41,047 nucleotides of DNA from a virus. The notes under the pieces were generated by a model that made no database searches, was not told where the DNA came from, and saw only the letters and a list, made by a program, of their open reading frames with translations. Below, piece after piece: positions 272 to 41,047 of the stretch. The translations under genes and the position numbers were made by a program. Numbering within the stretch: position 1 is the first letter of the stretch; each line of letters starts with the position of its first letter. The stretch lies in IMG/VR virus record IMGVR_UViG_3300045988_053841. One strand, 5' to 3'.

Positions 272-304
272 GAGAAAAGAGCGCTGCCGCCAGCAGCGCT
301 CTTT
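272..304 (-). terminator. Rho-independent terminator downstream of the integrase
   Basis: Perfect stem AAAGAGCGCTGC / GCAGCGCTCTTT (276-287 / 293-304) with a 5-nt loop. On the minus strand it is followed by TTTTCTC. Confidence 0.7.
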
Positions 305-1619: not shown

Positions 1620-2232
1620 CTTTGTCACCTCCCGGCTCGTGACCGATGAAAACGGTGTGGGATCGCTTCGTATACCGGGAGGACATACGAAGCAGACAGT
1701 GGCCCATGACGCAGGCGGCCGCGATGACCAGAAGCAGAATAAACCACGCGGCAAGCGAGATGTTGCCGCCGATGATAAGTCCCGCATTTGGGAGACGAAA
1801 GTCCCAAATTAGATACCAGACTACAGCAAAGAACATAAGCGAACAGACAGTGATAAGCGAATAGGTACGCCGCGTCAGTTCGGAGCGGAGAGCATCGTTG
1901 CTATCCCGCAGACTGCGGATCTCGCCATTGCGCTCCGCCAGTTCCAGCTCAAGGGCACGGATCCGCTGCTCCAGCTCCGCGCGCTGGCGCTCCGCCTCCG
2001 GCCTGACTGCGCCGAACATCTCATCGATGGACAGATCCAGCACGCGGGCCAACGCCGCCGCCTGCACGATGGTAACGCCGCCGTTGCCGCTTTGTGCGTT
2101 GCGGACGGTGGAGTATGGGACGCCGGAGCGCTCGGATAATTTTTCGTTGGTGAGGCCGAAGCGGGAACGTGCCATGCGGAATGCTTTGGGGTATGCACGG
2201 ATGTATGGGGATAACTCGTCAATAACGGACAT
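1609..2232 (-). CDS. Membrane-anchored XRE-family HTH protein (HTH, coiled coil, two TM helices)
   Basis: ATG at 2232 is preceded by AAGGAGG. N-terminal HTH (LTNEKLSERSGVPYSTVRNAQSG), a central E/R/A/L-rich heptad-like stretch, and hydrophobic helices LITVCSLMFFAVVWYLIW and ISLAAWFILLLVIAAACVMG. Confidence 0.75.
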   Translation of the reverse strand: MSVIDELSPYIRAYPKAFRMARSRFGLTNEKLSERSGVPYSTVRNAQSGNGGVTIVQAAALARVLDLSIDEMFGAVRPEAERQRAELEQRIRALELELAERNGEIRSLRDSNDALRSELTRRTYSLITVCSLMFFAVVWYLIWDFRLPNAGLIIGGNISLAAWFILLLVIAAACVMGHCLLRMSSRYTKRSHTVFIGHEPGGDKDGQ

Positions 2233-3207: not shown

Positions 3208-3231
3208 GACCGCGCCCGGAGGGACGCGGTC
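3208..3231. terminator. Hairpin between the convergent cro-like and YHYH genes
   Basis: GACCGCG (3208-3214) pairs with CGCGGTC (3225-3231). On the minus strand it is followed by TTATTTA. There is no clean T-run on the plus strand. Confidence 0.35.
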
Positions 3232-3240
3232 GGCAGGGGA

Positions 3241-3666
3241 CTATTTCTTTTTCTTCCGGGAACGCATGGCCCACTCATAGATGGCGACCGGGATCGCAAA
3301 GGCGATGACAGTCTCCGCGATGCCAAGCCAAAACTTGGTGCTCGTAATGAGCGACACGAGGTCGTCCCATGTCGAGGTGGAAGCCTTGACCGGTTCGCCG
3401 GTATCAGCGTCATTCCGCAGCACGGGCATTTCAACGGAGCCGGAGCCGCCACCATCGGACGGCCGGCTATCAGCACCGGTGCGGTCATCGAAGTTGTATG
3501 GGCACTGCCCGTTGTAATGCTGGTGGGCCTTGTGGCCGTGGTGGTAATGGTATTCGCCGGTGGAACGGTCGTAATGGCCACCGGCGGCATCGGTGCCTCC
3601 GGGATGAGCGAGAGCCACCGTGCAGCAGAGAAGCAGCGCAAAGAGCGCTACGAGCAGTTTCTTCAA
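3241..3666 (-). CDS. Secreted, membrane-anchored YHYH-motif protein (moron)
   Basis: TTG start at 3666 lies 9 nt after GGAGGTG. Signal-peptide-like N-terminus (MKKLLVALFALLLCCTVALA), the motif GGHYDRSTGEYHYHHGHKAH, a C-terminal TM helix and a KKKK tail. The protein contains VEMPVLRN. Confidence 0.7.
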   Translation of the reverse strand: MKKLLVALFALLLCCTVALAHPGGTDAAGGHYDRSTGEYHYHHGHKAHQHYNGQCPYNFDDRTGADSRPSDGGGSGSVEMPVLRNDADTGEPVKASTSTWDDLVSLITSTKFWLGIAETVIAFAIPVAIYEWAMRSRKKKK

Positions 3667-16191: not shown

Positions 16192-16460
16192 AAAAGCTCC
16201 GAGGGGTGCGCCTGAGCCGCAACCGGCAGGGCTTCATCCGCTACACCTGCCTGACCTATGACGAGCAGCCGCGGGGTATGCGGAACAAAATAGACAGGCT
16301 CCTGCGCGAATGCGGGGGGCCTTACAGTGCTGCCCTGCGGGAGGTGATGTGCGGCGAGGACAGCATCACGTCCATCGCCCTGCGGCACTATGTCAGTGAG
16401 AGCGCGCTGTATCGGCTGCGAAAGGATTTTTACGAGAGCTGGGACAAAAAGCGAAAATGA
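16188..16460 (+). CDS. Hypothetical protein, possibly a sigma region-4-like HTH late regulator
   Basis: ATGA overlap with the previous stop codon. The C-terminus ITSIALRHYVSESALYRLRKDFYESW is HTH-like. The functional call is weak. Confidence 0.45.
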   Translation: MKKLRGVRLSRNRQGFIRYTCLTYDEQPRGMRNKIDRLLRECGGPYSAALREVMCGEDSITSIALRHYVSESALYRLRKDFYESWDKKRK

Positions 16461-16463
16461 TGC

Positions 16464-16509
16464 TTGACATTTTGTGTTCCAAAATATATAATTGACTTAA
16501 CGGAACACA
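16464..16509 (+). promoter_or_regulatory. Perfect consensus promoter with a flanking 8-bp inverted repeat (operator) for the RHH gene
   Basis: TTGACA (16464-16469), 17 nt, TATAAT (16487-16492). TGTGTTCC (16473-16480) and GGAACACA (16502-16509) bracket the -10 element. Confidence 0.7.
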
Positions 16510-16526
16510 GAAAGTGAGGTGAATAT

Positions 16527-16700
16527 ATGTCTCCGAGGACAGGGCGTCCGAAAGCGGAGAACCCGAAAGACATCGACGTGAAGGTGCGCTTCGACAGGGT
16601 GACGCATGAAAAGCTGTTGGCGTACTGCCGAGAGCGTGGCATCACGAGAACAGAAGCCATCAGGAAAGCGGTTCAGACGCTTTTAGACGCAGAAAAATAG
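16527..16700 (+). CDS. Ribbon-helix-helix (CopG-family) DNA-binding protein (57 aa). It is missing from the ORF track because it is under 60 aa.
   Basis: ATG at 16527 is preceded by GTGAGGTG. MSPRTGRPKAENPKDIDVKVRFDRVTHEKLLAYCRERGITRTEAIRKAVQTLL is a typical RHH layout. Stop codon TAG at 16698-16700. Confidence 0.7.
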   Translation: MSPRTGRPKAENPKDIDVKVRFDRVTHEKLLAYCRERGITRTEAIRKAVQTLLDAEK

Positions 16701-16820
16701 AGTGCTGGCGGCCCTCGACAAGCTAACCAACACTCTATTCGCACCAAGAGGTTTCCCTCAAGGTAAATCCATTCTACCACAGGGGAGACCTCCAGACAAG
16801 AGAAAAATTTGGAGGTTTTT

Positions 16821-16955
16821 ATGAACTCATCAACGAAAACAGCGTCAGCAGAGCTGGAGAAAGTTATCCTTACGCGGTTCGCAGAGCTGACGGAGGAGGA
16901 AAAGATCACGGTGCTGGTCACAGCCATGGTGATGGCGGAAGGCGGTGCGGCATGA
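16821..16955 (+). CDS. Possible small ORF (44 aa) translationally coupled to the HNH gene
   Basis: GGAGG lies 5 nt upstream of ATG 16821. ATGA overlap with the HNH start. Contains RFAELTEEEKITVLV, similar to the 2445 ORF and the repressor C-terminus. Confidence 0.35.
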   Translation: MNSSTKTASAELEKVILTRFAELTEEEKITVLVTAMVMAEGGAA

Positions 16956-17446
16956 AGCGTCTTGACCTAACCGGACAGAGGTTCGGGATGTTGGTCGCAC
17001 AAGAGGTTGCGTTTCGAGAAAGCGGGAGAGTCCACTGGCGCTGCGTGTGCGACTGTGGCAACGTTTCGTTTCCGGCTACGGCGGACTTGGTCAGTGGGCA
17101 CTCAAGTAGCTGCGGTTGCGCTGCGAGAGAAAAGACGCGAAAACGGTCCTTGAAGCACGGAGGCGCGAACAACACTCGGCTATACAGGATATGGCTGAAT
17201 ATGAAACGGCGATGCGACTTAAAAAGCCACCCGGCGTATGGGAACTACGGCGGGCGAGGAATAACCGTATGCGATGAGTGGAAGTCAGATTTCGCTTCAT
17301 TTCGAGATTGGTCACTGTGTAATGGCTATGCGGAGAATTTGTCTATAGACCGCATCGACAATGATGGAAATTACTGTCCGGGAAACTGCCGGTGGGCAAC
17401 TGCAAAAGAGCAGTCAAACAATCGACGCCGGAGGAAAAGTACATAA
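16952..17446 (+). CDS. HNH-family endonuclease with an N-terminal LTGQRFG...SCGC zinc module
   Basis: DLTGQRFGMLVA..WRCVCDCG..SSSCGC, then YRIWLNMKRRC..YGGRGITVCDEW and IDRIDNDGNYCPGNCRWATAKEQSNN. It lies directly upstream of terS and looks lower in GC than its neighbours. Confidence 0.7.
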   Translation: MKRLDLTGQRFGMLVAQEVAFRESGRVHWRCVCDCGNVSFPATADLVSGHSSSCGCAAREKTRKRSLKHGGANNTRLYRIWLNMKRRCDLKSHPAYGNYGGRGITVCDEWKSDFASFRDWSLCNGYAENLSIDRIDNDGNYCPGNCRWATAKEQSNNRRRRKST

Positions 17447-17451
17447 GCGCA

Positions 17452-17491
17452 GAAATGCTGGAAGCGCAATGCTTCCGGCATTTCTTTTTTT
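17452..17491 (+). terminator. Strong rho-independent terminator
   Basis: 14-bp stem GAAATGCTGGAAGC / GCTTCCGGCATTTC (one G-T pair), loop GCAAT, followed by TTTTTTT. Confidence 0.8.
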
Positions 17492-17584
17492 GCGCTTTTT
17501 GCGGTGGGAATGTTGGCGATAACGAGCACTCCATCCGTGTTATGCTGTTAGCGTGAAGAAGTTTTCCACAGGGAGGGAATGGGC

Positions 17585-27423: not shown

Positions 27424-28437
27424 ATGCCTACTATCATTCGATTTGGCGGCGGCGCCGGGGACGGCGCGCAGAAGCTGCTGGTGAACGTGGACAGCGGCGC
27501 CGTGGTGACAGCCAAGAAGGGCAGCTACGCAGTGAGTGCCGTAAGCGAGAACGGCCAGGCGGTGCTGGAGCTGGACGAGGCGGGCACCTACACGGTGAGC
27601 GCCAGCAAGGACGGCACCACCACGCCGGACGTGAAGACGGCCACGGTGCCGCAGGAGCTTACCCTCAGCTTCGTGGCGGCGGAGCTGAACACCAACAGCT
27701 GGGAGATGATCAAGGCGGTATCGGACGCCGGGCAGGGGGCCAACTACTGGTCCGTGGGAGACACGAAGGACGTGACGCTCTCCGGCACCTGGCAGAGCCT
27801 CAACGTGTCCAATGTGACCGTCAAGGCGTTCATCATAGGCTTTGACCACAACAGCGCCGTGGAGGGTGAGCACCGCATCCACTTCCTTATGGGCAAGATC
27901 GGCACCGCCATGGTGGCCTTCTGCGACAGCCAGTACGGCAACCAGACCAGCGGCGCGTACTTCACCATGAACACCGCGAACACCAACTCCGGCGGCTGGG
28001 AGGCCTCCCGAATGCGGAAGACGGTGCTGGGCAATAGCAACACACCGGACGTGCCCCTGGAGGGCAGCCTTATAGCGGTGCTGCCGGAGGAGCTGCGGGC
28101 GGTGATGAAGCCGGTGACGAAGTGGACGCAGAACAGCGCGATAGCAGCGACTGCCACCACGGACTACGCGTTCCTCATGGCGGAGTTTGAAATATTCGGC
28201 AAGCGGACGTATGCCTACACCACCGAGCAAGATAAGCAGGCGCAGTACAACTACTTCAAGGCAGGCAACCCCAGGGTGTTCTACAAGCACTCGGCGACCA
28301 CCACGGCGGTCATTGCCTGGCTGCGCTCGCCGTATGCCAGCTACAGCTACTATTTCTGCAGTGTGACCGCGTCGGGCGCCGCGTACTACTCCAATGCCAG
28401 CATTTCGCTTGGCGTCGCCCCCGGCTTTTGCGCGTGA
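27424..28437 (+). CDS. DGR variable protein 1 (receptor-binding candidate), DUF6273-like / C-type-lectin-fold-like C-terminus
   Basis: The C-terminus AWLRSPYASYSYYFCSVTASGAAYYSNASISLGVAPGFCA is encoded by VR1. It lies at the end of the fibre module and directly upstream of the Avd-like gene, TR and RT. Confidence 0.88.
   Translation: MPTIIRFGGGAGDGAQKLLVNVDSGAVVTAKKGSYAVSAVSENGQAVLELDEAGTYTVSASKDGTTTPDVKTATVPQELTLSFVAAELNTNSWEMIKAVSDAGQGANYWSVGDTKDVTLSGTWQSLNVSNVTVKAFIIGFDHNSAVEGEHRIHFLMGKIGTAMVAFCDSQYGNQTSGAYFTMNTANTNSGGWEASRMRKTVLGNSNTPDVPLEGSLIAVLPEELRAVMKPVTKWTQNSAIAATATTDYAFLMAEFEIFGKRTYAYTTEQDKQAQYNYFKAGNPRVFYKHSATTTAVIAWLRSPYASYSYYFCSVTASGAAYYSNASISLGVAPGFCA
28305..28428 (+). repeat. 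DGR variable repeat VR1
   Basis: Matches the TR except at TR adenines. TR AAT/AAC/ACG codons appear as TAT, TAC, TAC, TAT, AGT, ACC, GCG, TAC, TAC, TCC, AAT and ATT. Confidence 0.88.
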
Positions 28438-28466
28438 TCGGGCGAAGCCCGGCATCGGAAAGACTA

Positions 28467-28489
28467 TCCCCCGGCGGAAGCCGGGGGGA
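28467..28489 (+). other. GC-rich hairpin with a GGAA loop downstream of VR1
   Basis: CCCCCGGC (28468-28475), loop GGAA, GCCGGGGG (28480-28487). It lies within the conserved 45-nt block 28454-28498. Confidence 0.6.
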
Positions 28490-28509
28490 CGAAAGGAGAA
28501 GGATCCGAA

Positions 28510-29013
28510 ATGAGCGTACCGACCTATAAGAGGCAGAAGCCGGATCCGAACAACCCGCGGGATCCGGAGTTCGTGCTGCTGAGCAAGAAGCTGTATGTGG
28601 AGGTCATCGACCTGCTCTCGTGCATGAGCGCACGGTACGGCCGCCTGATCGCCGTACCGACGGCGGAGCTGGCCGGGGAGGTGCAGGACTACGCCGTGAA
28701 GGCCAACGACGTGTTCCCCAGCGACGGGCAGAAGCTGGCGCTGCGGCGGGAGTACCTGCTGCGCTGCCACGCTGCGGCCAAGGCGCTGGGCGAGCGGATG
28801 GACAAGGTACATGAGGTGCTGCGGTCCAACCCGGAGGGCGCCTTCCGCAACGGCAAGGGTGTGACACTGGGCGCGGAGGCGGCGCTGAAGAAGCTGCACC
28901 GGATGGAAACGGACGTAGGTGCCGACTGCGTGGCGCTGCGTAAGAAGCTGGAGGCGGTGGCCGACAGCGACAAGCGCCGGTATATGGCACAGGAAAAGAA
29001 AAGGAAGTCATAA
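28510..29013 (+). CDS. avd: Accessory variability determinant (Avd)-like protein
   Basis: 167-aa basic, predicted helical protein in the canonical slot between the VR and the TR. The call rests mainly on position. Confidence 0.6.
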   Translation: MSVPTYKRQKPDPNNPRDPEFVLLSKKLYVEVIDLLSCMSARYGRLIAVPTAELAGEVQDYAVKANDVFPSDGQKLALRREYLLRCHAAAKALGERMDKVHEVLRSNPEGAFRNGKGVTLGAEAALKKLHRMETDVGADCVALRKKLEAVADSDKRRYMAQEKKRKS

Positions 29014-29063
29014 GAGTATGGGTGTGTCTCTGAATAAGTGCCCGGTCGTGTTGAGGGCGGGAG

Positions 29064-29188
29064 GCGGTCAATGCCTGGCTGCGCTCGCCGAATGCCAGCA
29101 ACAGCAACAATTTCTGCAATGTGAACACGTCGGGCGCCGCGAACAACAACAATGCCAGCAATTCGCTTGGCGTCGCCCCCGGATTTCG
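29064..29188 (+). repeat. DGR template repeat (TR)
   Basis: About 125 bp, homologous to VR1 and VR2. It carries 11 AAY codons (reading NASNSNNFCNVNTSGAANNNNASNS) at exactly the positions where the VRs differ. It is non-coding (not part of any supported gene) and lies upstream of the RT. Confidence 0.88.
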
Positions 29189-29315
29189 TGCCCCCTCTAC
29201 GCTTGGAGGGTGAGCAGGTCGAACAGCAACAGGACCTTGCGCGAAAGGAGAGGCACTTCCCGCGACGGCGCACGCCGTCCAAAACCGTCTTCCGCACCGC
29301 TGCACGGACGCTTGC

Positions 29316-29340
29316 CGGAACGCCAAGGAACGGCGTTCCG
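29316..29340 (+). other. Perfect 9-bp hairpin in the TR-RT spacer (candidate DGR RNA structural element)
   Basis: CGGAACGCC (29316-29324), 7-nt loop, GGCGTTCCG (29332-29340). Confidence 0.4.
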
Positions 29341-29466
29341 ACACACCCGCCGGGGCTATGGCGGGCGCTTGCATGGCGGAGAATGTGCCTACCTCCGTTT
29401 CATGTGCCGCGGGAGAGCAGAGAACACGCCGGGCGGCACGGCCCGACGCTGCCGGGAGACTACCAC

Positions 29467-30588
29467 ATGACAAGCGCGGAGCGCCGGGAGGGGCGCTATC
29501 AACGACGGAAGGCACGGCGGCAGGAGCGCAGGCAGCGGCGCATGGCGGCGCTGGGCACGATAGAGGACATCGCCCGGTTCGACCGGATGTACCAATGCGG
29601 AAAGGACTGCTGCCGGGGCGTGCGGTGGAAAACCAGCATACAGGCCTTCGAGGCGGAGCTGTTTCTACGGACGGCGCAGAGCTGCCGCCTGGTGGAAAGC
29701 GGTGCGTGGCACCCGCAGCGGAAGCCGGTACACTTCACCGTGATGGAGCGTGGCAAGGTACGGCCTATCGACGCGCCCCACGTGGACGACAGGCAGGTGC
29801 AGAAGGTACACAGCCGGTTTGTCCTCGCGCCGTGCTACGGCCCCGCCATGATCTACGACAACGGGGCCAGCCAACAGGGCAGGGGCCTGGAGTTCGCCTA
29901 CCGGCGGCTGAAAAGGGCACTGATGCGGCACTACCGCCGCTATGGCCGGGAGGGCAGCGTGATCCTGTGCGACCTCAAGGAGTTCTTTCCCTCGGCGCCG
30001 CGAGAGGCACTGCTGGACCGCCACCGGCGGTATATGCCGGAGGGGCCCATCCGGGCACTGGCGGACGAGATGGTGCTGACGGCGCCGGAGACAGAGCCGG
30101 GCCGGGGTATGCCGCTGGGCATGGAGCAGAGCCAGCAGGAGATGGTGGCTCTGCCATCGGCGGTGGATAACTGGCTGCGGTGCCAGATGCACCTGGAGGC
30201 ACAGCACTACATGGACGACTATGTGATCCTGGTGCCGCCGGGCGTGGACGCGGCGGCGGTGCTGGAGGCGTTCATCGCACGGTGCGAGGCGCTGGGGCTG
30301 CGGGTAAACCGCAGGAAGTGCCGCTATGCACCGCTGCGGCGGCCCTTCCGCTACTGCAAGACGAAGTTCCATGTGACGGAGTCCGGGCGGGTGGTGACGC
30401 ACCGCACCGGGGACGCACAGAGGCGCTGCCGGCGGAAAATGCGCCTGCTGGCCGCCAGGGGCGACTGGGAGGGCGTAAGGGCGCAGATCGTGAGCGCCAA
30501 GGGCTACTACAAGAGACACAACGACAACGGACGTTTGACAGCGCTGCGGGCGCTGCACAGCGCACTGCGAAAGGAGAGGGCAGCATGA
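29467..30588 (+). CDS. DGR reverse transcriptase
   Basis: YMDDYVI catalytic box, LGMEQSQ (the DGR-type LGxxxSQ motif), and a basic N-terminus. It lies immediately downstream of the TR. ATG 29467 is taken as the start; the track ORF extension spans the TR. Confidence 0.88.
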   Translation: MTSAERREGRYQRRKARRQERRQRRMAALGTIEDIARFDRMYQCGKDCCRGVRWKTSIQAFEAELFLRTAQSCRLVESGAWHPQRKPVHFTVMERGKVRPIDAPHVDDRQVQKVHSRFVLAPCYGPAMIYDNGASQQGRGLEFAYRRLKRALMRHYRRYGREGSVILCDLKEFFPSAPREALLDRHRRYMPEGPIRALADEMVLTAPETEPGRGMPLGMEQSQQEMVALPSAVDNWLRCQMHLEAQHYMDDYVILVPPGVDAAAVLEAFIARCEALGLRVNRRKCRYAPLRRPFRYCKTKFHVTESGRVVTHRTGDAQRRCRRKMRLLAARGDWEGVRAQIVSAKGYYKRHNDNGRLTALRALHSALRKERAA

Positions 30589-32983: not shown

Positions 32984-34294
32984 ATGGCAAGGTACAACGG
33001 AAACATCACCCAGACCACCAACAAGAATAAGAACAAGACCACCGGCACCGGGAACAACCTGGGAGGCACCAAAGCCGGGGGCATCATCAACGGCGCGCTG
33101 GCCGGCGCTGTCTCCGGCAGCGGGGGCATCAGGATCAAGGGCGGATCCTCCGGTGGGAGCAAGGGAGCGGTCTCTGCGCCTCCGGGCTATAAGACTGTAC
33201 AGGTGGGGCGTCTTACCGGCGTAGCGAAGGATACGAGCTCCTCCGGCGGCACCACCAAAAGCAGCGGCAGCAGCGGTTCCGGCGGGAGCCTTGCCGGCGG
33301 CGTGGCCGGGGCCATCGCCGGTGCGGTGAAGGATGCTGCTAAGAACGTGGCGCAGGGTAGCTACTCCGTCGGGAGCTACGGTGGAAGCTCCGGCAGTTCC
33401 GGCGGCTACTCCGGCAGCGGCTACAACAACGGCGGCCTGAGCGCTGACCAGGTCCGGCAGATGCAGGAATACTACGGCACCACCGCGGACGGCCTGTGGG
33501 GCGCGAATTCCGCGGCGGCAGCGGGCGGCATGAGCGCCGCCGAGGCGTGGAACGCCTACCGGGAGGCACTGGCGCAGGACGAGCTGAACGGCGATATGTC
33601 GTGGGAGAACTTCCTGGACCGCATGGGCGGCGCCGACTATGAGCAGCGGCTCCGCGATGCCGTCAACGCGCAGGTGCAGCAGGCCGTAAACGACTACAAC
33701 CGCCAGATCGAGCAGGCGGGCACCAGCCATGAGGAAGCGGCGCGCCGGGCGTACATCAACAAAATGCTGTCCCAGCGGAACATGGAACAGGAGCTGGCGG
33801 CCAGCGGCGTGTACGGCGGCATGGCGGACAGCCAGCGGATCGCGGCGGAGGCCGACTATCAGAACGACCTCACCGACCTTGAGACACAGTACAACGACAC
33901 GATGGCACAGCTGCGGCAGGCCATCACGGCAGCCCGGCTGTCCGGCGACGCGCAGATCGCGGAGCAGATGGCAAACTATCTCAGCCAGGTACAGAGCGAG
34001 TACCGGAACTATCTGCAGGAGCGCATGGCCGCCCGCCAGCAGTCGGGCGGAGGCACCGCAAGCTATCAATCCTATGGCGGCAGCGGCGGTACGGCTACCA
34101 CGCAGGAGCAGAGCAGCGCCGCAGGCACCGGCCTCAGCAACTACAACGCCGTGAAGAACAATATCATGCTGTACGCCTCCCGCGGTATGACCGGCGTGGC
34201 CAACCGCCTTATCCAGCAGGCGTGGGGGCAGCTGAGCACGGCACAGCAGAACGACCTCGCGGCGACAATGAGGCAGAACGGCTGGACAAGCTGA
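32984..34294 (+). CDS. Gly/Ser-rich virion-associated protein (function unknown)
   Basis: ATG at 32984 is preceded by GGAGGTAAGGG. Low-complexity G/S N-terminal half and a helical C-terminal half. It is paired with the giant gene downstream. Confidence 0.5.
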   Translation: MARYNGNITQTTNKNKNKTTGTGNNLGGTKAGGIINGALAGAVSGSGGIRIKGGSSGGSKGAVSAPPGYKTVQVGRLTGVAKDTSSSGGTTKSSGSSGSGGSLAGGVAGAIAGAVKDAAKNVAQGSYSVGSYGGSSGSSGGYSGSGYNNGGLSADQVRQMQEYYGTTADGLWGANSAAAAGGMSAAEAWNAYREALAQDELNGDMSWENFLDRMGGADYEQRLRDAVNAQVQQAVNDYNRQIEQAGTSHEEAARRAYINKMLSQRNMEQELAASGVYGGMADSQRIAAEADYQNDLTDLETQYNDTMAQLRQAITAARLSGDAQIAEQMANYLSQVQSEYRNYLQERMAARQQSGGGTASYQSYGGSGGTATTQEQSSAAGTGLSNYNAVKNNIMLYASRGMTGVANRLIQQAWGQLSTAQQNDLAATMRQNGWTS

Positions 34295-34309: not shown

Positions 34310-37300
34310 ATGGCTAAGAAGTCTATGGCTATGACCATCACCGAAAATAAGACCAAGCAGAGCAAGGCAGGGGCGCGCAGTGCGTCCCTGCCATCTGCGC
34401 TTCCTGCGCTGCAGATGCCGAAGCTGAAGACTCCGGCAAAGACATCGGGGACGCAAATGCCCGTGCTGGGGAAAACCACGTCCAAGGGCATTGGCATCGC
34501 GCAGTCCGTGGCGAACGGATCCGGCACACAGAGTAGCGGGAGAACCACGGCACCGAAGGTGAAGACCGTGAAGCCGGCGCAGCAGTCGGCGACAGACCGG
34601 GCGGCGAACGTTCGCGCATTCGGAGCGGGCGACTACTCCGGCGGCGGGGAGCTGCTGGAAAAAGCGTACAAGACCGCACGCGCCGCAGTAAAGGGCATCG
34701 GCTCCTCCTACGCCAACATCGGCGGCAGCGCCGTGGAGGGCATGGGCAACCTGCAGGAGATCATGCAGCGGGGCGAGTACGACAAAAAGGTACAGCAGAT
34801 GAAGGACAACAAGGCCTTCTATGAGCAGGCCCTGAAAACCGGCGTCAACCCCCGCACCGGCAAGAGGCTGACGGTGGACCAGAAAAGCCGGTACTACAAG
34901 ATACTCAACACGCAGTACACCGACGGCAAGATCGCCCAGATGGAGAATGTCTACAAGGAGGCTACGGCGAACCAAAAGGCCCGGACGATGGAGGCCGCCA
35001 ACGCCGCCTTCGCCGCTTCGGACCGCCTGAAGGCCAGCGCCGACAAGGACGTGGCCGCCGCCAAGGAGGGCAGCGGCAAGGCGGGGCAATTCCTTGTGGA
35101 TCTGGGCTACACCGGCACGCAGCTCCTGGCCGACCTGGCGGCGAACGCCATCGCACCGGGCGCGGGCATGGTATCCATGGCCAGCCGTGTATACGGCGAC
35201 GCCTCCGCAGAGGCCCGGCGGGAGGGTAAGACAGCCGGGCAGCAGGCGCTTTCCGGCCTGAAGGGCGCCACAATCGAGGTGCTGACGGAAAAGCTGTTCG
35301 GCGGTCTCGCCAAGGCCTACGGCGCCGGTACGGCGGACGAACTTGTGGAAAAAGTGGCCGACAAGCTGACCAAGACAGAAGCAGGCCAGCGGGCCGCTGT
35401 GTGGCTCATCAACTCCGGCGGTGAAGGCCTTGAAGAAGTCGTTTCCGACGTGTTGAACCCGCTGGCGGACCGGGCGCTGGGGCTGGACGACGGCACCGGG
35501 GCCATCTTCACAACGGACGACGCGGCGCAGATGGCCTATGATTTCCTGCTGGGCGGCACTATGGGGCTTATCGGCAGCAGCGGTCAGCTGCGGAGAGGTC
35601 GGACGGTGCAGATGCCGACGCTGGAGCGCACGCAGGATACCAGCACGGCGGAAATGCCGCAGTTTGCCACGGAACCGGCGGCACAGGACGCGCAGACGGC
35701 ACCGGTCGTAAACTTTGACGCCGAAACGCAGAACGCCGCAGAGAGGCTTACAGAGCCGAATACGGCGGCGGGGAAAATCACCATGCCGCGGGTGACGGAC
35801 GCCGCGGGGAATACATACGCCCAGCGGCAGGCGGCGGCGACGTTCAACGACGGCTCCAAGAGCGACGCAGAGGGCGTTCTTGGCCTGCTGCGGTCCAATA
35901 TCCCTGCCCTTGAGGGCATAGAGCCGGTGGCCAATGTGACCGGCCAAGAGGTGGGGAAAACCGGCAGGGCCACAGACCGGGTGTATAACTTCTTCCAGAG
36001 CATCGGCGGGAAGGTGCGCCGCGAAGGCTTCGGTGACGTGCTGTTCTCCAAAAGCCGGGTGAGAAACAGCGTAGTCGGACACGGATCGGGAGAGGCAAAG
36101 ATCCAACTGGCGGCGGCCGTACCCGGCGTAATAGAAAACGGTGTGCAGATCAACTACACACCGAACTGGAAGGGGAGAGGGTACGACAGCTATGTGTTTG
36201 CCGCGCCTGTGACCTATGATGGGAAACAGACCTATGTGACAGCCATCGTGACAAAGGATGATGCGAACCGCTATTATCTGCATGAGGCGCTGGACGCGGA
36301 GGGGAATGTGCTTTATAAAAAAGCAGAGGGCTACGACGCCGCCTCCGATAGGCCCACGGCAACACCGCAGGACACTATAGCTGACATCGAGCCCTCTGTT
36401 GATAGTATAACACAGACGGAGGGAGCTGTCAACGAGGTGGAAATGCCGGTGATGCAGGAGGCGGAGACTGCCGCAGAAGAAGCGGACGCTGCACAGACTG
36501 CGCGGCAGACGGTGGAGCAGATGGACGCGGAGTTTGACGCCATGGCGGAGGAGGCCCGCGCCAAACAGCGGCAACGTGAGGCCGAAGGCTACGAGATGCC
36601 GGAAACACTCCGGCGGCTGGGCGTGGATCCCTTCGGTTCCGAGGCGGACTACGCCGGGGCAGAAACGCTGGCGCGGGAGGCGCGGAACAACAATTCCGCC
36701 CGGAAGCAGATGCAGAAGCAGATCAGCAAGATGGCGTTTACGGAGAAGGAGCGTACCTTTGCCCGACAGCTTGCCAATGACAAGATCACATGGCAGGACG
36801 TACCGCCCACGATGGACATGGACCGGCTGGCCACGCTGACCGACTTCTACCGCGCAATGGACAATGATCCGGCGGCGGGGCTGCTGAGCAGACGGCGCGA
36901 CACCATCCTGGAACGGGAAACGGCCAAGATGGAGCCTTTGCTGGGCATGGACGTCACCTATGACGAGGGCGGCATGACGGACAGCGGGAAGCGCAGCGGA
37001 AAGATCGCTAAGAAGTTCAGCACACTGCGCCGGAATTTGCAGACACCGGCTCGCGTATGCGAAACAGAGTGGGGCACGGAGCATGGCCGGAAGGTCTACG
37101 ATGAGCTTTTCTACCCGGTGACGGAGAACAATGGGCGGCAGATCACATGGGTGAATTCCATGCTGGACAGGGTGCGGACCTTCACGGACGGCACCGGCAA
37201 GAAACGGGCGCTGAACCGCAAGGAGCGTGAGCTGGTGCAGAAGCTGGTGGAGTACAGCGCCTCGCAGGACCGAGTAGCCAAGTTCTCCAAGCAGTACGCT

Positions 37301-40189
37301 CCGGCGGTGGAAAATGTGCGGAACGGCGCGGGCGTAGAGGACTCCGCCAAGGAGTTCGGCATCGACAAGTCCTCGCAGGAGTACGCGGACCTGCTGAACT
37401 ACAAGACCTATCTGACCGCCGTGGAGGAACTGACGGCCAGCACAGAGGCCGACGGCACAGCGGTACAGGCCGCCGTGAAGGCATACGGCGACATCTACAA
37501 GGAGCTGTACGAGGGCATCAACACGTTCCTCGTGGCCCACGGATACCAGCCCATCGGCTTTATCGAGGGGTACGCGCCTCATCTCCAACCGGAAAGCGAG
37601 AGGACGGCATTCTCCAAGGCCCTTAAAATGCTGGGGCTGGACGACGCTGCCATGGAGCTGCCTACGTCCATCTCCGGCCAGACAGCGGACCTGAAGCCGT
37701 ACAAGCAGTACAATCCCTTCTTCCAGGAACGCCGGGGAGACAAGACGGAATATGACATTGCCAAGGGCTTTGAAAACTACGTCTACTACCTTGGAAACAT
37801 TTTCTATCACACGGACGACATCATGCGTATCCGTGCAGCGGAGAGGTACATCCGAAAGACCTACAGCAGCGAAGAAGCCAATGAGATGATCACACAGGCC
37901 GAGGATGCACGGAATTTCTCGGACGCCGACATCGAGGAGTTCCTGCGGATGAACGGCCTTGTGGGAAAGAACACAACGCTGGACGAGGGCGATGCCCGCA
38001 TACTGCTCAACGACTACATCGACAAGCTGTATGATCAGATCGGCAACGTGACGCGCTACAGCGAGATGGCGAAGTACCTGGACAACTACGCCAACCGGCT
38101 GGCGGGCAAGCAGAACTATGTAGACCGCGGCGCGGAGGCCGCTACCGGGCGAGGATCGCTGAACTGGATCAATACACTGTCCGGGAAATACGGCGGAGCC
38201 AAGCTGGCGTTTAACGTTTCGTCGGCTATCAATCAGACATCGCAGCTCCCGATGGTGGCTGTGGAAAACGGCGAGAAGTACACGGCGGCAGCCATGCGCG
38301 ACTTCTTCAAGAAGGACAGGAGCAGCTTCGTGAATGAAAGCAACTTCTTGAAGGGCAAGAAGGGTGTAAACTGGCTGCTGGGCGCGGAAACCGGCTGGGA
38401 GAAGTTCAAGCAGGCCGGATTTTCCATGACGGAGGCCGTGGACAGCTTCACAGCCTACACGGCGGTACGCAGTAAGTACCTCAAAGAGACCGCGGCGGGC
38501 AAGAGCCATGCGGAGGCTATCAAGCTGGCGGACGACTACGGCCGCCGCGTGATGGGCTCAAGAGCGCGGGGCGAGAAGCCGGTACTGTTCGACACGAAAA
38601 ACCCCTTCTGGCAGATCGCGACACGGTTCCAGCTCGAAACGCTGAACAGCTGGGAGCACGTCAGCCGCGACCTGCCCAACGAGTTCCGGAAAATGGCGGG
38701 GGAGAAGGGCAAGACTTACGCCGCCCGCGTCATGGGCGGCAGAGCCGCGAAGTACGTCCTGTATGCGTTCCTGGCTAACCTCGCCGTGGGCGAACTGTCC
38801 GGCGGATCGCCGGTGCCCTTCGACCTGCTGGGCAATACCATGGAGGCACTGGGCAAGGCGTGGGGGCTGACCAAGAGCCAGACCGTGGCCACACTGCTGG
38901 ACAGTGTGCTGCAAGCCGTGTTCGATGAACGGCTGTTCGGCACGCCGGAGCCGGAGGACGACGATGACGCCGACTGGTGGGCCGCGCTTGAAAGCCTGTT
39001 CGGCAACGTGGCCAACGATGTGCCGGTAGTCAGCCGGGCCGCGGCGCTGGCCGGCGTGGGAGATCAGACGCTGGCGGTGGCAGACCTGTCCAAGATCGCA
39101 GACCTTGCGAAGTCTGTAAAGGACAAGGGGCTTACATCTGCTGACACGCTGGACAAGGCAGCCACGGCGGGCGGCGAGTTCCTGTACGGCGGCAACCAGC
39201 TCCGCAAGACGATACAGGGCACCATGGACGTGCTACGCGGCGGCAGGTACAATAACGGAAAGCTGCGCTACCAGGTAGATCAGACGCCGTGGAACTACTT
39301 TAAGGGGGCTGTCTTCGGCCGCAGTTCGCTGGACGAGGCGCAGGACTACTATGCGGAGAGGAGCAGCGACTTCTCCGCGAAGCAGACGGAGACCTTCGGA
39401 AACCTGCAGAGCGCCGGTGTGGCCGCCAAGGAGAGTTATGACCTCATCCAGGACCTGCGTGGCATCGAAAAGACCGATGACGAGAGCAAGGCCGAGATGC
39501 AGCGCGAGGCATTGATGTCTTCCGACATCAGCGGAGAGGGGAAGGCGGCGGCTTATTACGGCCTGCTGGCCACCGACAAGGAGAAGGCCGCCATGGACGC
39601 CATAGGCGATGCGGAACCGACGGCGGACATGGGAGAGGTGACGGGCCTGCTGGTGCGCTTTAAGTCGTGCAAGAACGACACAGAGAAGCTGGCGGCGCTG
39701 CAGGACAGCGGATTGACGCTTTCACAGAAAACATCCATCTATACCAACCTCATCGCCAGCGAGGAGGCGCTGAAAGAACAGAGCGACCTTGAGGCCTATG
39801 ACGGCATCACGGCGGAGAAATACTACCAGTACAAGACCGCCGTTACCGGATTGACGGGAAAAGCTGCGAAGATGGCCGCTATCAATGCCCTTGACCTGCT
39901 GAGCGAGGAGAAGGACGCACTCTATTTTGCCAACGGCTGGGCGGAAAGCAAGCTGAACGAAGCACCGTGGCGCTCCGGATACAGCTACGTTGAGATGCCA
40001 GTATTGGGGAGTAGCGGGGCAACGATGCCCATACTTGGCCGGAAACGTACCTCTGAACTGGAGATGCCAGTGCTCAGCAAGGCGGCGTATAGCAATGTGG
40101 AAATGCCGGTACTGGGAAGCCGTGGAAGCTCCGGCGTACAGATGCCTGTGCTGGGCGGCGGTACGGTGAAAATGCCGGTGCTGAAATGA
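34310..40189 (+). CDS. Giant (1959 aa) virion-associated protein: tape-measure-like, internal-ejection-like or polyvalent-protein-like
   Basis: A single uninterrupted ORF with a good RBS (CAGGAGGG). Long helical regions and MPVL-type motifs at both ends. It lies downstream of the lysis cassette. I did not recognise a catalytic domain by eye. Confidence 0.6.
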   Translation: MAKKSMAMTITENKTKQSKAGARSASLPSALPALQMPKLKTPAKTSGTQMPVLGKTTSKGIGIAQSVANGSGTQSSGRTTAPKVKTVKPAQQSATDRAANVRAFGAGDYSGGGELLEKAYKTARAAVKGIGSSYANIGGSAVEGMGNLQEIMQRGEYDKKVQQMKDNKAFYEQALKTGVNPRTGKRLTVDQKSRYYKILNTQYTDGKIAQMENVYKEATANQKARTMEAANAAFAASDRLKASADKDVAAAKEGSGKAGQFLVDLGYTGTQLLADLAANAIAPGAGMVSMASRVYGDASAEARREGKTAGQQALSGLKGATIEVLTEKLFGGLAKAYGAGTADELVEKVADKLTKTEAGQRAAVWLINSGGEGLEEVVSDVLNPLADRALGLDDGTGAIFTTDDAAQMAYDFLLGGTMGLIGSSGQLRRGRTVQMPTLERTQDTSTAEMPQFATEPAAQDAQTAPVVNFDAETQNAAERLTEPNTAAGKITMPRVTDAAGNTYAQRQAAATFNDGSKSDAEGVLGLLRSNIPALEGIEPVANVTGQEVGKTGRATDRVYNFFQSIGGKVRREGFGDVLFSKSRVRNSVVGHGSGEAKIQLAAAVPGVIENGVQINYTPNWKGRGYDSYVFAAPVTYDGKQTYVTAIVTKDDANRYYLHEALDAEGNVLYKKAEGYDAASDRPTATPQDTIADIEPSVDSITQTEGAVNEVEMPVMQEAETAAEEADAAQTARQTVEQMDAEFDAMAEEARAKQRQREAEGYEMPETLRRLGVDPFGSEADYAGAETLAREARNNNSARKQMQKQISKMAFTEKERTFARQLANDKITWQDVPPTMDMDRLATLTDFYRAMDNDPAAGLLSRRRDTILERETAKMEPLLGMDVTYDEGGMTDSGKRSGKIAKKFSTLRRNLQTPARVCETEWGTEHGRKVYDELFYPVTENNGRQITWVNSMLDRVRTFTDGTGKKRALNRKERELVQKLVEYSASQDRVAKFSKQYAPAVENVRNGAGVEDSAKEFGIDKSSQEYADLLNYKTYLTAVEELTASTEADGTAVQAAVKAYGDIYKELYEGINTFLVAHGYQPIGFIEGYAPHLQPESERTAFSKALKMLGLDDAAMELPTSISGQTADLKPYKQYNPFFQERRGDKTEYDIAKGFENYVYYLGNIFYHTDDIMRIRAAERYIRKTYSSEEANEMITQAEDARNFSDADIEEFLRMNGLVGKNTTLDEGDARILLNDYIDKLYDQIGNVTRYSEMAKYLDNYANRLAGKQNYVDRGAEAATGRGSLNWINTLSGKYGGAKLAFNVSSAINQTSQLPMVAVENGEKYTAAAMRDFFKKDRSSFVNESNFLKGKKGVNWLLGAETGWEKFKQAGFSMTEAVDSFTAYTAVRSKYLKETAAGKSHAEAIKLADDYGRRVMGSRARGEKPVLFDTKNPFWQIATRFQLETLNSWEHVSRDLPNEFRKMAGEKGKTYAARVMGGRAAKYVLYAFLANLAVGELSGGSPVPFDLLGNTMEALGKAWGLTKSQTVATLLDSVLQAVFDERLFGTPEPEDDDDADWWAALESLFGNVANDVPVVSRAAALAGVGDQTLAVADLSKIADLAKSVKDKGLTSADTLDKAATAGGEFLYGGNQLRKTIQGTMDVLRGGRYNNGKLRYQVDQTPWNYFKGAVFGRSSLDEAQDYYAERSSDFSAKQTETFGNLQSAGVAAKESYDLIQDLRGIEKTDDESKAEMQREALMSSDISGEGKAAAYYGLLATDKEKAAMDAIGDAEPTADMGEVTGLLVRFKSCKNDTEKLAALQDSGLTLSQKTSIYTNLIASEEALKEQSDLEAYDGITAEKYYQYKTAVTGLTGKAAKMAAINALDLLSEEKDALYFANGWAESKLNEAPWRSGYSYVEMPVLGSSGATMPILGRKRTSELEMPVLSKAAYSNVEMPVLGSRGSSGVQMPVLGGGTVKMPVLK
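39992..40186 (+). repeat. Six tandem peptide repeats ending in (E/T/Q/K)-M-P-(V/I)-L-(G/S/K) at the C-terminus of the giant protein
   Basis: ATG codons at 39995, 40025, 40064, 40103, 40142 and 40172. The Pro and Leu codons differ between copies (cca/ccc/cca/ccg/cct/ccg and ttg/ctt/ctc/ctg/ctg/ctg), so conservation is at the peptide level rather than the DNA level. Confidence 0.85.
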
Positions 40190-40191
40190 TT

Positions 40192-40221
40192 AAAGCCGGA
40201 GAGCTTAGGCTCTCCGGCTTT
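40192..40221. terminator. Bidirectional hairpin terminator between convergent genes
   Basis: AAAGCCGGAGAGC (40192-40204), loop TTAG, GCTCTCCGGCTTT (40209-40221). Confidence 0.7.
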
Positions 40222-40232
40222 GCACTTTAAGA

Positions 40233-40775
40233 CTAATTTCCCAGAACTGGCATTCGAACAACGGAACAGGAGGGACACGCTCTGTACCCGTTGCTTAGGG
40301 CAAGCTCTGTATTGAATATCCAGTATCCGGCCGACAGGTCACATTTCGAGCAGGTGGGATCCCGGTGATACATACGGCCACCGGTAGGAACTACACAGGC
40401 GTTGTCTGCGTAAAGGGAGAGGGCGTCAAGCTCATCCCGCAGGCCCTTGACGGTGGACGTGAGGTTCGATATGCTGGTGCGCGCGTTGGCGTTGTTCTCC
40501 TGGGCGTCAAGCAGGTCTGCGCGGCACTCTGAGTAGGAGATCTCCCTCGCTACGCCGATAGCCAAGGAAGCGAGCAGCGCGACGGAAAGGACGATGACTG
40601 CCACAGAAGGCCTGCGCTTGCGGCGCTTCTTAGGGGCTACGGCACGCCGGGGATCATAGCCGCAATCGCAAGGGGAGCCGGAATGGTTTAGACAACCGCA
40701 GGCCGGGCAGGTATACCATGTGTCCGTGATGGGTTCGTCCTGCACCTCGGTATATTCGACATCGACAAAATCCAT
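40233..40775 (-). CDS. Membrane protein: N-terminal cytoplasmic zinc ribbon, one TM helix, extracellular coiled coil and a Cys-rich C-terminal domain (moron)
   Basis: ATG at 40775 is preceded by AAGGAGG. Contains CPACGC..CDCG, the TM helix VAVIVLSVALLASLAIGV, and MYHRDPTCSKC...GYRACPSC. It ends in RMPVLGN. Confidence 0.7.
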   Translation of the reverse strand: MDFVDVEYTEVQDEPITDTWYTCPACGCLNHSGSPCDCGYDPRRAVAPKKRRKRRPSVAVIVLSVALLASLAIGVAREISYSECRADLLDAQENNANARTSISNLTSTVKGLRDELDALSLYADNACVVPTGGRMYHRDPTCSKCDLSAGYWIFNTELALSNGYRACPSCSVVRMPVLGN

Positions 40776-40798: not shown

Positions 40799-40827
40799 AG
40801 AATAGACGAGGCATCGGGATTTGTCAA
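40799..40827 (-). promoter_or_regulatory. Own promoter of the attP-adjacent moron
   Basis: On the minus strand: TTGACA (40822-40827), 17 nt, TATTCT (40799-40804). Confidence 0.6.
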
Positions 40828-40928: not shown

Positions 40929-41047
40929 AAAGCCTTGTGGCACAAAGCTTGCGTGGAAAATTTGATAAAACGTGGAAAGACATAAAAAATCAAAAATGGC
41001 ATGGGCAACAATCCTATGGTCGGCGCGACCGTGGCCGTGGCTGTTGC
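40929..41047. repeat. Terminal direct repeat, copy B
   Basis: Identical to bases 1-119. Confidence 0.9.

Follow-up and report, generated by a model that had tools for sequence, protein, structure and literature searches.

We examined a short peptide motif that recurs in three proteins of a 41,047-bp viral genome (IMG/VR virus record IMGVR_UViG_3300045988_053841), which is referred to here as the window, meaning the whole of that stretch of DNA. The ends of the window carry an exact 119-bp direct repeat (1–119 and 40929–41047), indicating a circular assembly of ~40.9 kb, and therefore the end with the integrase gene is contiguous with the end with the gene for a giant, 1959-aa protein. Gene calling with a codon-usage model, plus two small genes that were added by hand, gave 48 proteins with 12,034 aa. 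The three proteins with the motif are the giant polyvalent protein (34310–40189, plus strand), a zinc-ribbon membrane protein (40233–40775, minus strand, 180 aa) and a YHYH membrane protein (3241–3666, minus strand, 141 aa). The original prediction, which was made from the sequence of the window, had reported the tetrapeptide MPVL in these proteins and had described its carriers as unrelated. Re-reading of the sequence bore out all its strings and coordinates (the MPVL/MPIL copies and the N-terminal, internal, YHYH and zinc-ribbon copies) and the unrelatedness of the carriers. Our analyses showed that these strings are copies of a seven-residue motif, V-[E/K/T]-[M/K]-P-V-[L/M/V]-[G/K/S/R], kept by protein-level selection. 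They also showed that its allele class (MPVL, KPVM or MPVV) changes together at the N-terminus of the giant protein, in its C-terminal array and, mostly, in the zinc-ribbon tail.

The heptad and its three carriers

Domain analysis of the giant protein identified LPD3 (PF18798), one of the signature LPD domains of polyvalent proteins, at residues 565–656, scoring 36.7 bits (cut-off 27; E = 5.5e-9). The domain shuffling of polyvalent proteins was also seen, as LPD3 is swapped for PBECR3 between flanks that are 65–97% identical. A total of 753 homologues was found, among which precomputed matches to PF18798, PF18812 (PBECR3) or PF18857 (LPD38) were present, and the homologue at locus L015 has two HExxH metallopeptidase-like segments. 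The C-terminal module of ~730 aa is present in 2,678 cluster representatives, with lengths of 1,500–5,600 aa, and the LPD3 segment resembles proteins annotated as internal-virion or structural in Pseudomonas podophages. Iyer et al. 2017 (PMC5512222) predict that polyvalent proteins are packaged and are injected together with the DNA. In phi24B, the giant LPD protein gp47, which is comparable, was detected in virions, and a role as an ejection protein was proposed for it (bioRxiv 10.64898/2026.04.10.717836). The structural module of the window is podovirus-like, and the structural genes scanned offered no ejection-protein candidate that competes with the giant protein. Based on this context and the literature, the giant protein is probably packaged in the virion head and ejected into the cell envelope at infection.

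The last 66 residues of the giant protein read VEMPVLGSSGAT-MPILGRKRTSEL-EMPVLSKAAYSNV-EMPVLGSRGSSGV-QMPVLGGGTV-KMPVLK-stop. This C-terminal array (39989–40186, plus strand) starts after a conserved GWAESKLxEAPW anchor and contains six heptads, VEMPVLG, TMPILG, LEMPVLS, VEMPVLG, VQMPVLG and VKMPVLK, separated by Gly/Ser-rich spacers; five of them have MPVL and the sixth MPIL, and their Met codons are at 39995, 40025, 40064, 40103, 40142 and 40172. The remaining copies, all on the plus strand, are at the N-terminus (QMPKLK, 34415–34426, and QMPVLGK, 34457–34468) and in linkers. VEMPVMQ (36443–36454, residue 712) lies just past LPD3 at the start of an acidic linker, and three additional sites of the form MPx-hydrophobic lie between the N-terminal helical region and LPD3: QMPTLE (35612–35623, residue 435), EMPQFA (35654–35665, residue 449) and TMPRVT (35783–35794, residue 492). 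The dipeptide MP was observed 13 times in the giant protein versus ~1.7 times expected, and 12 of these 13 sites are MPx-hydrophobic, all of them in the two tails or in inter-domain linkers. Judged by their sequence, the motif-bearing segments are apparently flexible and unstructured. The AlphaFold2 (AF2) model of the giant C-terminal module was too poor to interpret, with a mean predicted local distance difference test (pLDDT) score of 41.6; in that poor model the tail is coil at pLDDT ~25 from the anchor onwards.

The zinc-ribbon protein comprises, in order, a cytoplasmic CPACGC...CDCG ribbon, a KKRRKRR stretch, one transmembrane (TM) helix, a coiled coil, a Cys-rich outer domain (YHRDPTCSKC...CPSC) and the end VVRMPVLGN-stop. 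Its MPVL (40242–40253, minus strand) is in the extreme C-terminal tail, which is predicted to face outside based on the KKRRKRR before the TM helix (the positive-inside rule). The AF2 model of this protein (mean pLDDT 59.5, outer domain below 50) was confident only for the ribbon and for the TM and coiled-coil helix. No match to the protein was found in Pfam, NCBIfam, PHROGs or PADLOC. Just upstream of its gene is a promoter-like site, TTGACA-17-TATTCT (40799–40827, minus strand), which is a consensus match only, at 10 of 12 positions. The convergent stop codons of the giant and zinc-ribbon genes flank a perfect 13-bp hairpin, AAAGCCGGAGAGC-TTAG-GCTCTCCGGCTTT (40192–40221), that is probably a two-way terminator; it has no long T run and was missed by the consensus scan.

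The YHYH protein begins with a cleavable signal peptide, after which HPGGTDAAGGHYDRSTGEYHYHHG fits the HxGxTDxxGGHxDxxTGxYHYH metal-site motif. This YHYH metal-site domain is followed by a Gly/Ser linker containing S-VEMPVLR-N, a C-terminal TM helix and RSRKKKK. The MPVL of this protein (3418–3429, minus strand) thus lies in the linker that connects domain and membrane anchor and, given the signal peptide, would be on the outer face of the membrane. A total of 86 homologues was found, including one that NCBI names a YHYH domain-containing protein, and there was no match in Pfam, PHROGs or PADLOC. A terminator-like hairpin (3208–3231, minus strand) lies just past the gene. The original prediction held that the two small genes are transcribed separately and that their motif copies are extracellular. 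The first claim is in keeping with one consensus sign per gene, the promoter-like site of the zinc-ribbon gene and the terminator-like hairpin of the YHYH gene, and the second with the topologies predicted from the positive-inside rule and the signal peptide.

MPVL occurs far above chance in the window, as had been claimed. Eight copies were observed in three proteins of the proteome versus 0.063 expected, none of 1,500 per-protein shuffles yielded MPVL in three proteins, and the Poisson probability was 4e-5 for at least three independent sites and 6e-7 for at least four. A six-frame translation of the window contained no further MPVL or MPIL. The codons for Pro, Val, Leu and the flanking residues vary among the copies, and 27 distinct DNA instances from 12 loci varied almost only at third codon positions, indicating selection on the peptide and not on the DNA. 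Recent DNA duplication was rejected as the source of all the window copies because they differ at synonymous sites, which agrees with the earlier claim that conservation acts on the peptide.

The earlier failure to recognise the motif as a known signal was upheld by the profile searches, as no family was found for the motif-bearing regions in Pfam, NCBIfam, PHROGs or PADLOC. The original prediction had also named the mapping of the repeats to a known generic low-complexity domain as evidence against it, and no profile of a known repeat or cell-wall-binding family matched the repeat region: for the last 129 residues of the giant protein no Pfam match was better than E = 0.18, and the whole giant protein matched nothing in NCBIfam. 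A sortase (LPXTG-type) signal was rejected, as the residue at +4 is Gly in only 47% of units and no hydrophobic segment follows the copies in the giant and zinc-ribbon proteins; the TM helix of the YHYH protein starts ~28 residues beyond its motif. A double-glycine leader, or Peptidase C39 substrate, was rejected as well, as GG follows only some copies and the window has no C39-like gene.

Tail alleles and their co-variation among relatives

Tail classes were defined among 120 homologues of the giant protein. Tails of the MPVL class have 3–6 copies; those of the KPVM class have one MPVL and then 3–6 KPVM, ending in EKPVMK or EKPAMK; and those of the MPVV class have three copies with APVFVRV spacers. 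Remoter giant proteins have tails with xP(V/I)(L/I)G, MP(K/R)L, FP(R/T/V)F or a single RMPRLD, and other remote ones have unrelated terminal repeats (NPFLRAMQ, SYLxxLxxKNG, MLANVRRLN). The most distant homologues, such as that of the fecal phage MT835607, have no tail. The giant-protein clade thus seems to have, as a general design, a repeated peptide array at the terminus whose sequence is free to change. Terminal arrays with different motifs (NPFLRAMQ, SYLxxLxxKNG, MLAN(V/I)RRL and FP(R/T/V)F) were seen at loci L043, L044, L075, L076 and L077 and in proteins P0248 and P0249; no viral-contig loci were found for protein P0251.

The tails of close relatives have diverged rapidly. In 94 homologues with an overall identity of at least 92%, the pairwise identity of the tails was 65.1% versus 98.0% for the preceding 200 residues. 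The arrays of these 94 proteins have 3–7 copies that are 9–13 residues apart, with the unit consensus V(76%)-[E/K/T]-[M/K]-P(100%)-V(93%)-[L/M]-[G/K/S/R], and the motif core is retained while the spacers diverge. The array at locus L001 has three DNA-identical units, indicating that arrays grow by tandem duplication, with a change in copy number. The equivalents of the linker sites before LPD3 are kept, as QMPRLY, RMPQLT and QMPTLV, in homologues that are 59–81% identical in the best aligned segment, and the VEMPVMQ site is QMPVVD/G, KMPRLT or RMPTLD in relatives. The motif was rejected as a feature of all polyvalent proteins, as MP is only 1.36-fold enriched in them and only 10 of 150 representatives have at least three MPx-hydrophobic sites. 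In viral contigs, linker-separated tandem MPVL arrays were found only in this giant-protein family. On the sequences compared, the MPVL-type feature belongs to one sub-lineage of Oscillospiraceae phages. The recurrence of MPVL reported by the original prediction thus stands, and its treatment as a fixed signal does not: MPVL is one allele of a fast-evolving tail array.

To determine which positions of the giant protein follow tail class, 86 close homologues with 531 variable columns were aligned, uncorrected for phylogeny. The only columns outside the tail that predicted its class (KPVM versus MPVL) were those of the N-terminal copy, residues 43–53, whose accuracy was 92%; across the ~1,850 residues that separate this copy from the tail, every column stayed below 88%. 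Tail class, therefore, does not mark a clade. N-terminal copies of the K type (KPIM or KPTM) were present in 10 of 28 proteins with KPVM tails and in none of 66 with MPVL tails (Fisher 1.5e-6, uncorrected for phylogeny), and the second N-terminal copy becomes QKPIMGK only in proteins with a KPVM array. All 11 proteins with MPVV tails have xP(T/A)V at the N-terminus. The two termini of the giant protein, which are 5.7 kb apart in the DNA, are specifically coupled.

The zinc-ribbon tail was concordant in class with the giant tail in 12 of 14 distinct same-genome combinations. Zinc-ribbon tails were of the KPVM class in all four combinations with a KPVM giant protein and (M/V)PVV in all three with an MPVV giant protein; MPVL giant proteins were combined with an MPVL zinc-ribbon tail five times and with a KPVM tail twice. 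The likeness is longer in the MPVV class, where the zinc-ribbon VPKVVRITEMPVVTTKS compares with APVYVRV...VKMPVVK of the giant protein. Both ectodomain backgrounds of the zinc-ribbon protein, ALSNGY and AAGKGY, were found with an MPVL tail and with a KPVM tail, so that class switching is seen on either. Between the window and locus L001 the tail differs at 7 of 18 nt, in proteins that are otherwise ~93% identical. The tail behaves as a separate cassette. All 27 aligned zinc-ribbon homologues, which extend down to 51% identity and include multi-TM forms, end in x-P-V-hydrophobic, with the Pro invariant, the Val nearly so and the flanking residues shifting by class. Where MPVV-class relatives have no zinc-ribbon gene, its place downstream of the giant gene is taken by an 800-aa AAA_11/AAA_12 helicase gene (L003, 15951–18353; L005, 16013–18415; both minus strand) whose product is like Mokosh MkoA (E = 9e-35), indicating that the slot is a defence or moron hotspot.

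The YHYH copy and the giant copies match over six residues (VEMPVL). The motif is retained in the close YHYH homologues P0121–P0127 (85–96% identical to the window protein), which were found alongside MPVL-class giant proteins only. More distant YHYH proteins all lack the motif and have ordinary Pro/Thr-rich linkers. The original prediction had named loss of the motif in homologues of its carriers as evidence against it, and the result differed by protein: zinc-ribbon homologues all keep the x-P-V-hydrophobic end, distant YHYH proteins are without the motif, and distant giant proteins have other tails or none. Two further candidate matches were dropped. KPTV and KPAV in other YHYH linkers are generic Pro/Thr-rich spacers, and PTLPTVK is common to YHYH homologue P0170 and the distant giant protein P0386, but the phage of P0170 has a polyvalent protein without such a tail.

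Many related prophages have two genes upstream of the YHYH gene (L082, 8585–9970, plus strand; also L084–L087, L089 and L090; a remnant is in L010, 5557–6207). These encode a 216-aa papain-like protein, with a weak Peptidase_C39 match and NCGAACLAM, and a 226-aa Cys-rich protein, both of which are absent from the window. The C39-like peptidase was rejected as a partner of the motif because its gene is absent from the window.

A matching neighbour is not a general rule for tail motifs, as phages with MLANVRRL, NPFLR, xP(V/I)(L/I)G or FPRF tails had no matching open reading frame (ORF) or zinc-ribbon gene in the available flanks, which extended less than 1 kb downstream for L043 and L047/L060. 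A gene for a Gly/Ser-rich 436-aa protein (32984–34294, plus strand), which precedes the giant gene, has counterparts, of 433–456 aa, at every related locus with upstream sequence. The 436-aa protein is possibly a second ejection protein. Twenty-two of its columns, mostly at 366–415 and partly of low complexity, separate KPVM-class from MPVL-class phages; no such columns were found in the holin and endolysin. These columns may reflect mere linkage, since they lie within ~300 nt of the N-terminal motif copy of the giant protein, and this protein as partner of the motif is only a lead.

A proposed docking peptide weighed against other functions

Together, these data make it likely, in our estimate, that the heptad is a functional peptide motif with one shared partner. 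One recognition partner is favoured because the N-terminal copy, the array and the neighbour tail co-vary. Beyond this, we tentatively propose, at rather less than an even chance, that the heptad is a multivalent docking motif for one envelope partner that prophage membrane proteins have copied against the entry of related phages. According to this proposal, the heptad would be a docking site for a single cell-envelope partner, such as a host membrane or wall-associated protein and possibly an envelope protease, which the ejected giant protein would meet on entry and to which multiple copies would bind more strongly. The two prophage membrane proteins would show the same peptide on the cell surface, where they would compete for or occupy the partner, or act as a decoy to the incoming protein. 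Related phages would then fail to complete entry, a superinfection exclusion by peptide mimicry. An arms race of exclusion and escape could drive the rapid allele turnover and the matching of alleles within a genome, and mismatched pairs, such as a KPVM decoy in an MPVL phage, might be aimed at a rival allele. It is more doubtful whether the interchangeable alleles, matched or deliberately mismatched between the ends of the giant protein and the decoys, form an allele-specific exclusion code in an arms race of gut phages.

The original prediction had offered a protease site, a capsid or portal targeting tag and a ligand for a host surface component as possible functions, and all three are still candidates. 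An envelope partner is favoured over the capsid interior because the motif is outside in the membrane proteins and the ejected protein passes through the same compartment. The idea of interference with entry is based on the moron or defence positions of the small genes and on the precedent of P22 SieA. This prophage inner-membrane protein blocks injection, and mutations that escape it map to C-terminal parts of ejection proteins gp16 and gp20 (PMC10883804). The likeness to the window lies in a temperate, short-tailed phage, a prophage membrane protein and specificity at the C-terminal regions of ejected proteins, and extends across diverse protein types. There is no sequence similarity between the systems, however, and SieA is polytopic and located in the inner membrane of a Gram-negative host. 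Unlike SieA, for which motif sharing with its target is not described, the membrane proteins of the window carry the peptide of their presumed target, so that competition or mimicry would be involved and exclusion is only proposed.

Ltp and Sie2009 are small, surface-exposed prophage proteins that are encoded beside the integrase/repressor region and block DNA injection by related phages in Gram-positive hosts. Both small genes of the window lie in a moron hotspot, encode predicted membrane proteins and have one consensus transcription sign each, and they would resemble the SieA, Ltp and Sie2009 genes if they were expressed from the prophage. Ltp, a lipoprotein, is directed against the tape measure protein of long-tailed phages; it has no homology here, and no motif common to Ltp and its target is known. 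The giant protein itself is like polyvalent proteins and phi24B gp47 in being a giant, multi-domain protein with LPD3 and a swapped central cargo domain (LPD3, PBECR3 or metallopeptidase-like), encoded beside virion and lysis genes. It is unlike polyvalent proteins at large in its terminal repeat, which is confined to one sub-lineage; a keyword search of Iyer et al. 2017 (PMC5512222), as far as that text was available to it, gave no mention of C-terminal repeats.

Several observations weigh against docking and mimicry as we propose them. The YHYH copy was seen only as MPVL, and locus L015, the sole MPVV-class phage with a YHYH homologue, has the linker DDEPYVLPLLKDE, which is not MPVV. No motif was common to the YHYH moron and the polyvalent protein of a more distant phage that has both. 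Two of the 14 giant/zinc-ribbon combinations were mismatched, and phages with MLANVRRL and FPRF tails had no matching neighbour gene in 10 kb of flank. The giant and zinc-ribbon alleles could move as one recombination block, since the gene ends are ~50 bp apart, and the co-variation statistics are uncorrected for phylogeny, and the allele switches may represent few events. No homology to a known exclusion or defence protein was found in PHROGs, Pfam or PADLOC, and both AF2 models were too poor to tell free from docked tails. Four steps of the proposal are inferred: the location of the giant protein in the virion, the expression of the small genes in the lysogen, the binding and the exclusion.

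The strongest competitor to docking, although unlikely, is that the heptad is a protease recognition or cleavage site at which the giant protein is cut into domains, its ends are trimmed and both membrane proteins are cut, for example to free the YHYH domain. Cutting could be done by an envelope enzyme of the host or by the YHYH domain, a predicted zinc-dependent hydrolase. The distribution of sites over the N-terminal tail, both sides of LPD3 and the C-terminal tail is like that of a viral polyprotein, and the YHYH copy is exactly in the linker that joins the domain to its membrane anchor; short motifs sit only in disordered linkers anyway, however, so that position does not discriminate. Peptidase processing of polyvalent proteins has been proposed (PMC5512222), and some homologues, such as that at L015, have HExxH segments, but the giant protein of the window has none. 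The YHYH domain is a predicted metal-dependent hydrolase, possibly a peptidase (PMC7824862). The C39-like gene that adjoins the YHYH gene in many relatives is lacking in the window, and its product has no signal peptide. Cleavage at six sites in 65 terminal residues, and at a zinc-ribbon site 2–4 residues from the C-terminus, would yield only tiny fragments, and tandem arrays are typical of multivalent binding rather than of cleavage.

Somewhat less probable again is a cargo-loading signal that docks the giant protein to the procapsid interior, portal or scaffold, with the membrane copies having another purpose, such as binding the same virion component from outside. Cargo is docked to an HK97-fold shell or prohead core by encapsulin cargo-loading peptides and by the T4 capsid-targeting sequence, which are short, terminal and on flexible linkers, and in some cases repeated. 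The copies in the giant protein are likewise terminal, multiple and on flexible linkers, the giant protein is very likely to be encapsidated, and the capsid protein is HK97-type (Phage_capsid_4). Whereas those known peptides are found on cargo only, the heptad is also predicted on the outer face of two prophage membrane proteins, which would be unable to reach the procapsid interior. It also turns over rapidly between close relatives, with allele switches between phages that have ~95% identity in the rest of the giant protein, a change that a structural partner would have to tolerate or track. A peptide common to an injected protein and to prophage surface proteins is found in none of the closest analogues (SieA, Ltp and the cargo peptides).

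We regard as distinctly improbable the view that the copies have no common function. The giant tail would then be slippage-prone and weakly constrained, and the copies in the small proteins would have arisen via short DNA patches (inverted duplication or gene conversion) and been kept by linkage. The DNA-identical tandem units at L001, the closeness of the giant and zinc-ribbon gene ends, the mismatched pairs and the tail classes without a matching neighbour are consistent with such an origin. The copies differ at synonymous sites, however, and hence are not recent, and the core is kept while the spacers diverge. The Pro-Val of the zinc-ribbon tail is kept down to 51% identity. Moreover, the N-terminal copy co-varies specifically with the tail from 5.7 kb away, and the YHYH copy matches in VEMPVL although it is ~4 kb away across the attachment region.

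It is very improbable that the arrays are precursors of a short signal peptide (such as MPVLG) that is secreted or released at lysis and then taken up and sensed by the phage or host, in the manner of arbitrium or Phr signals, which are cleaved from the C-termini of precursors. The copies are C-terminal, multiple and predicted to be outside the cell or released at lysis, the alleles resemble pherotypes, and a membrane-anchored helix-turn-helix (HTH) protein is encoded in the lysogeny module (1621–2232, minus strand). However, no RRNPP-type or TPR receptor was found among the proteins scanned, the giant protein has no secretion signal, a precursor of 1959 aa is implausible, and the linker and N-terminal copies would be unexplained. 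A conserved DNA or RNA element (ATGCCNGTNCTG), such as a protein-binding site or an inverted repeat around a terminator, is suggested by the imperfect inverted repeat that the last giant copy and the zinc-ribbon copy form around the hairpin, but is effectively refuted, as the variable positions are third codon positions, allele switches alter amino acids coherently (AAG CCN GTN ATG), and all copies are in frame in real genes with none in non-coding DNA.

Little is known of how short-tailed phages have their giant polyvalent or ejection proteins recognised, be it in packaging, in passage across the envelope or by the defences of hosts and prophages, and a repeated, co-varying heptad is a concrete, mutable handle on this question. 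If the docking and mimicry proposal is correct, decoy display of an invader's docking peptide would be a new mode of superinfection exclusion. A simple sequence code might then predict which gut prophages exclude which phages in the Oscillospiraceae, for which experimental phage systems are few. Were the heptad a signal for cleavage or loading instead, this very large protein family would still gain its first defined short signal.

Genome organisation and neighbouring modules

The phage is a temperate, podovirus-like phage of the Oscillospiraceae (Vescimonas). The closest named host genome was that of Vescimonas sanitatis MH37-1, which encodes a giant protein that is 94% identical, and all seven genome matches were from Oscillospiraceae. 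Genes for lysogeny (a tyrosine integrase and CI- and Cro-like HTH proteins), replication (a Rep-like initiator) and lysis (a holin and an amidase endolysin) were identified. The head and tail genes encode a P22-like portal, the HK97-type capsid protein and collagen-like fibres; a match to the SU10 adaptor was weak and below threshold. The phage looks short-tailed because none of the scanned structural genes was recognised as encoding a tape measure protein.

The window also contains a complete diversity-generating retroelement (DGR) at 27424–30588. Its 129-nt variable repeat (28305–28433) forms the 3' end of a DUF6273 tail-fibre-like gene, and the template repeat (29063–29191) is between an Avd-like gene (28510–29013) and the reverse transcriptase gene (about 29152/29542–30588). 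Fourteen of the 16 mismatches between the repeats are at template adenines. The motif arrays were rejected as a DGR variable region, as the target is 28305–28433 and the arrays are outside the DGR.

In the lysogeny region, the membrane-anchored HTH regulator encoded at 1621–2232 (minus strand), between the integrase and the repressor, has 204 aa: an XRE-type HTH at the N-terminus is followed by a coiled coil and, at the C-terminus, by two TM helices. It is conserved in relatives, with 89% identity. The integration module has been swapped among relatives: the window has a tyrosine integrase (303–1787, minus strand) versus a serine recombinase (Resolvase/Recombinase) at L081–L083 and L086–L090, and the relatives with the serine recombinase integrate beside a Mn-catalase gene. 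A further region, 16400–17560, has a third-position GC content of ~0.55 versus 0.8–0.9 elsewhere and contains small ORFs, including one for a Cys-rich 164-aa protein (16952–17446). This region is probably another recently acquired moron.

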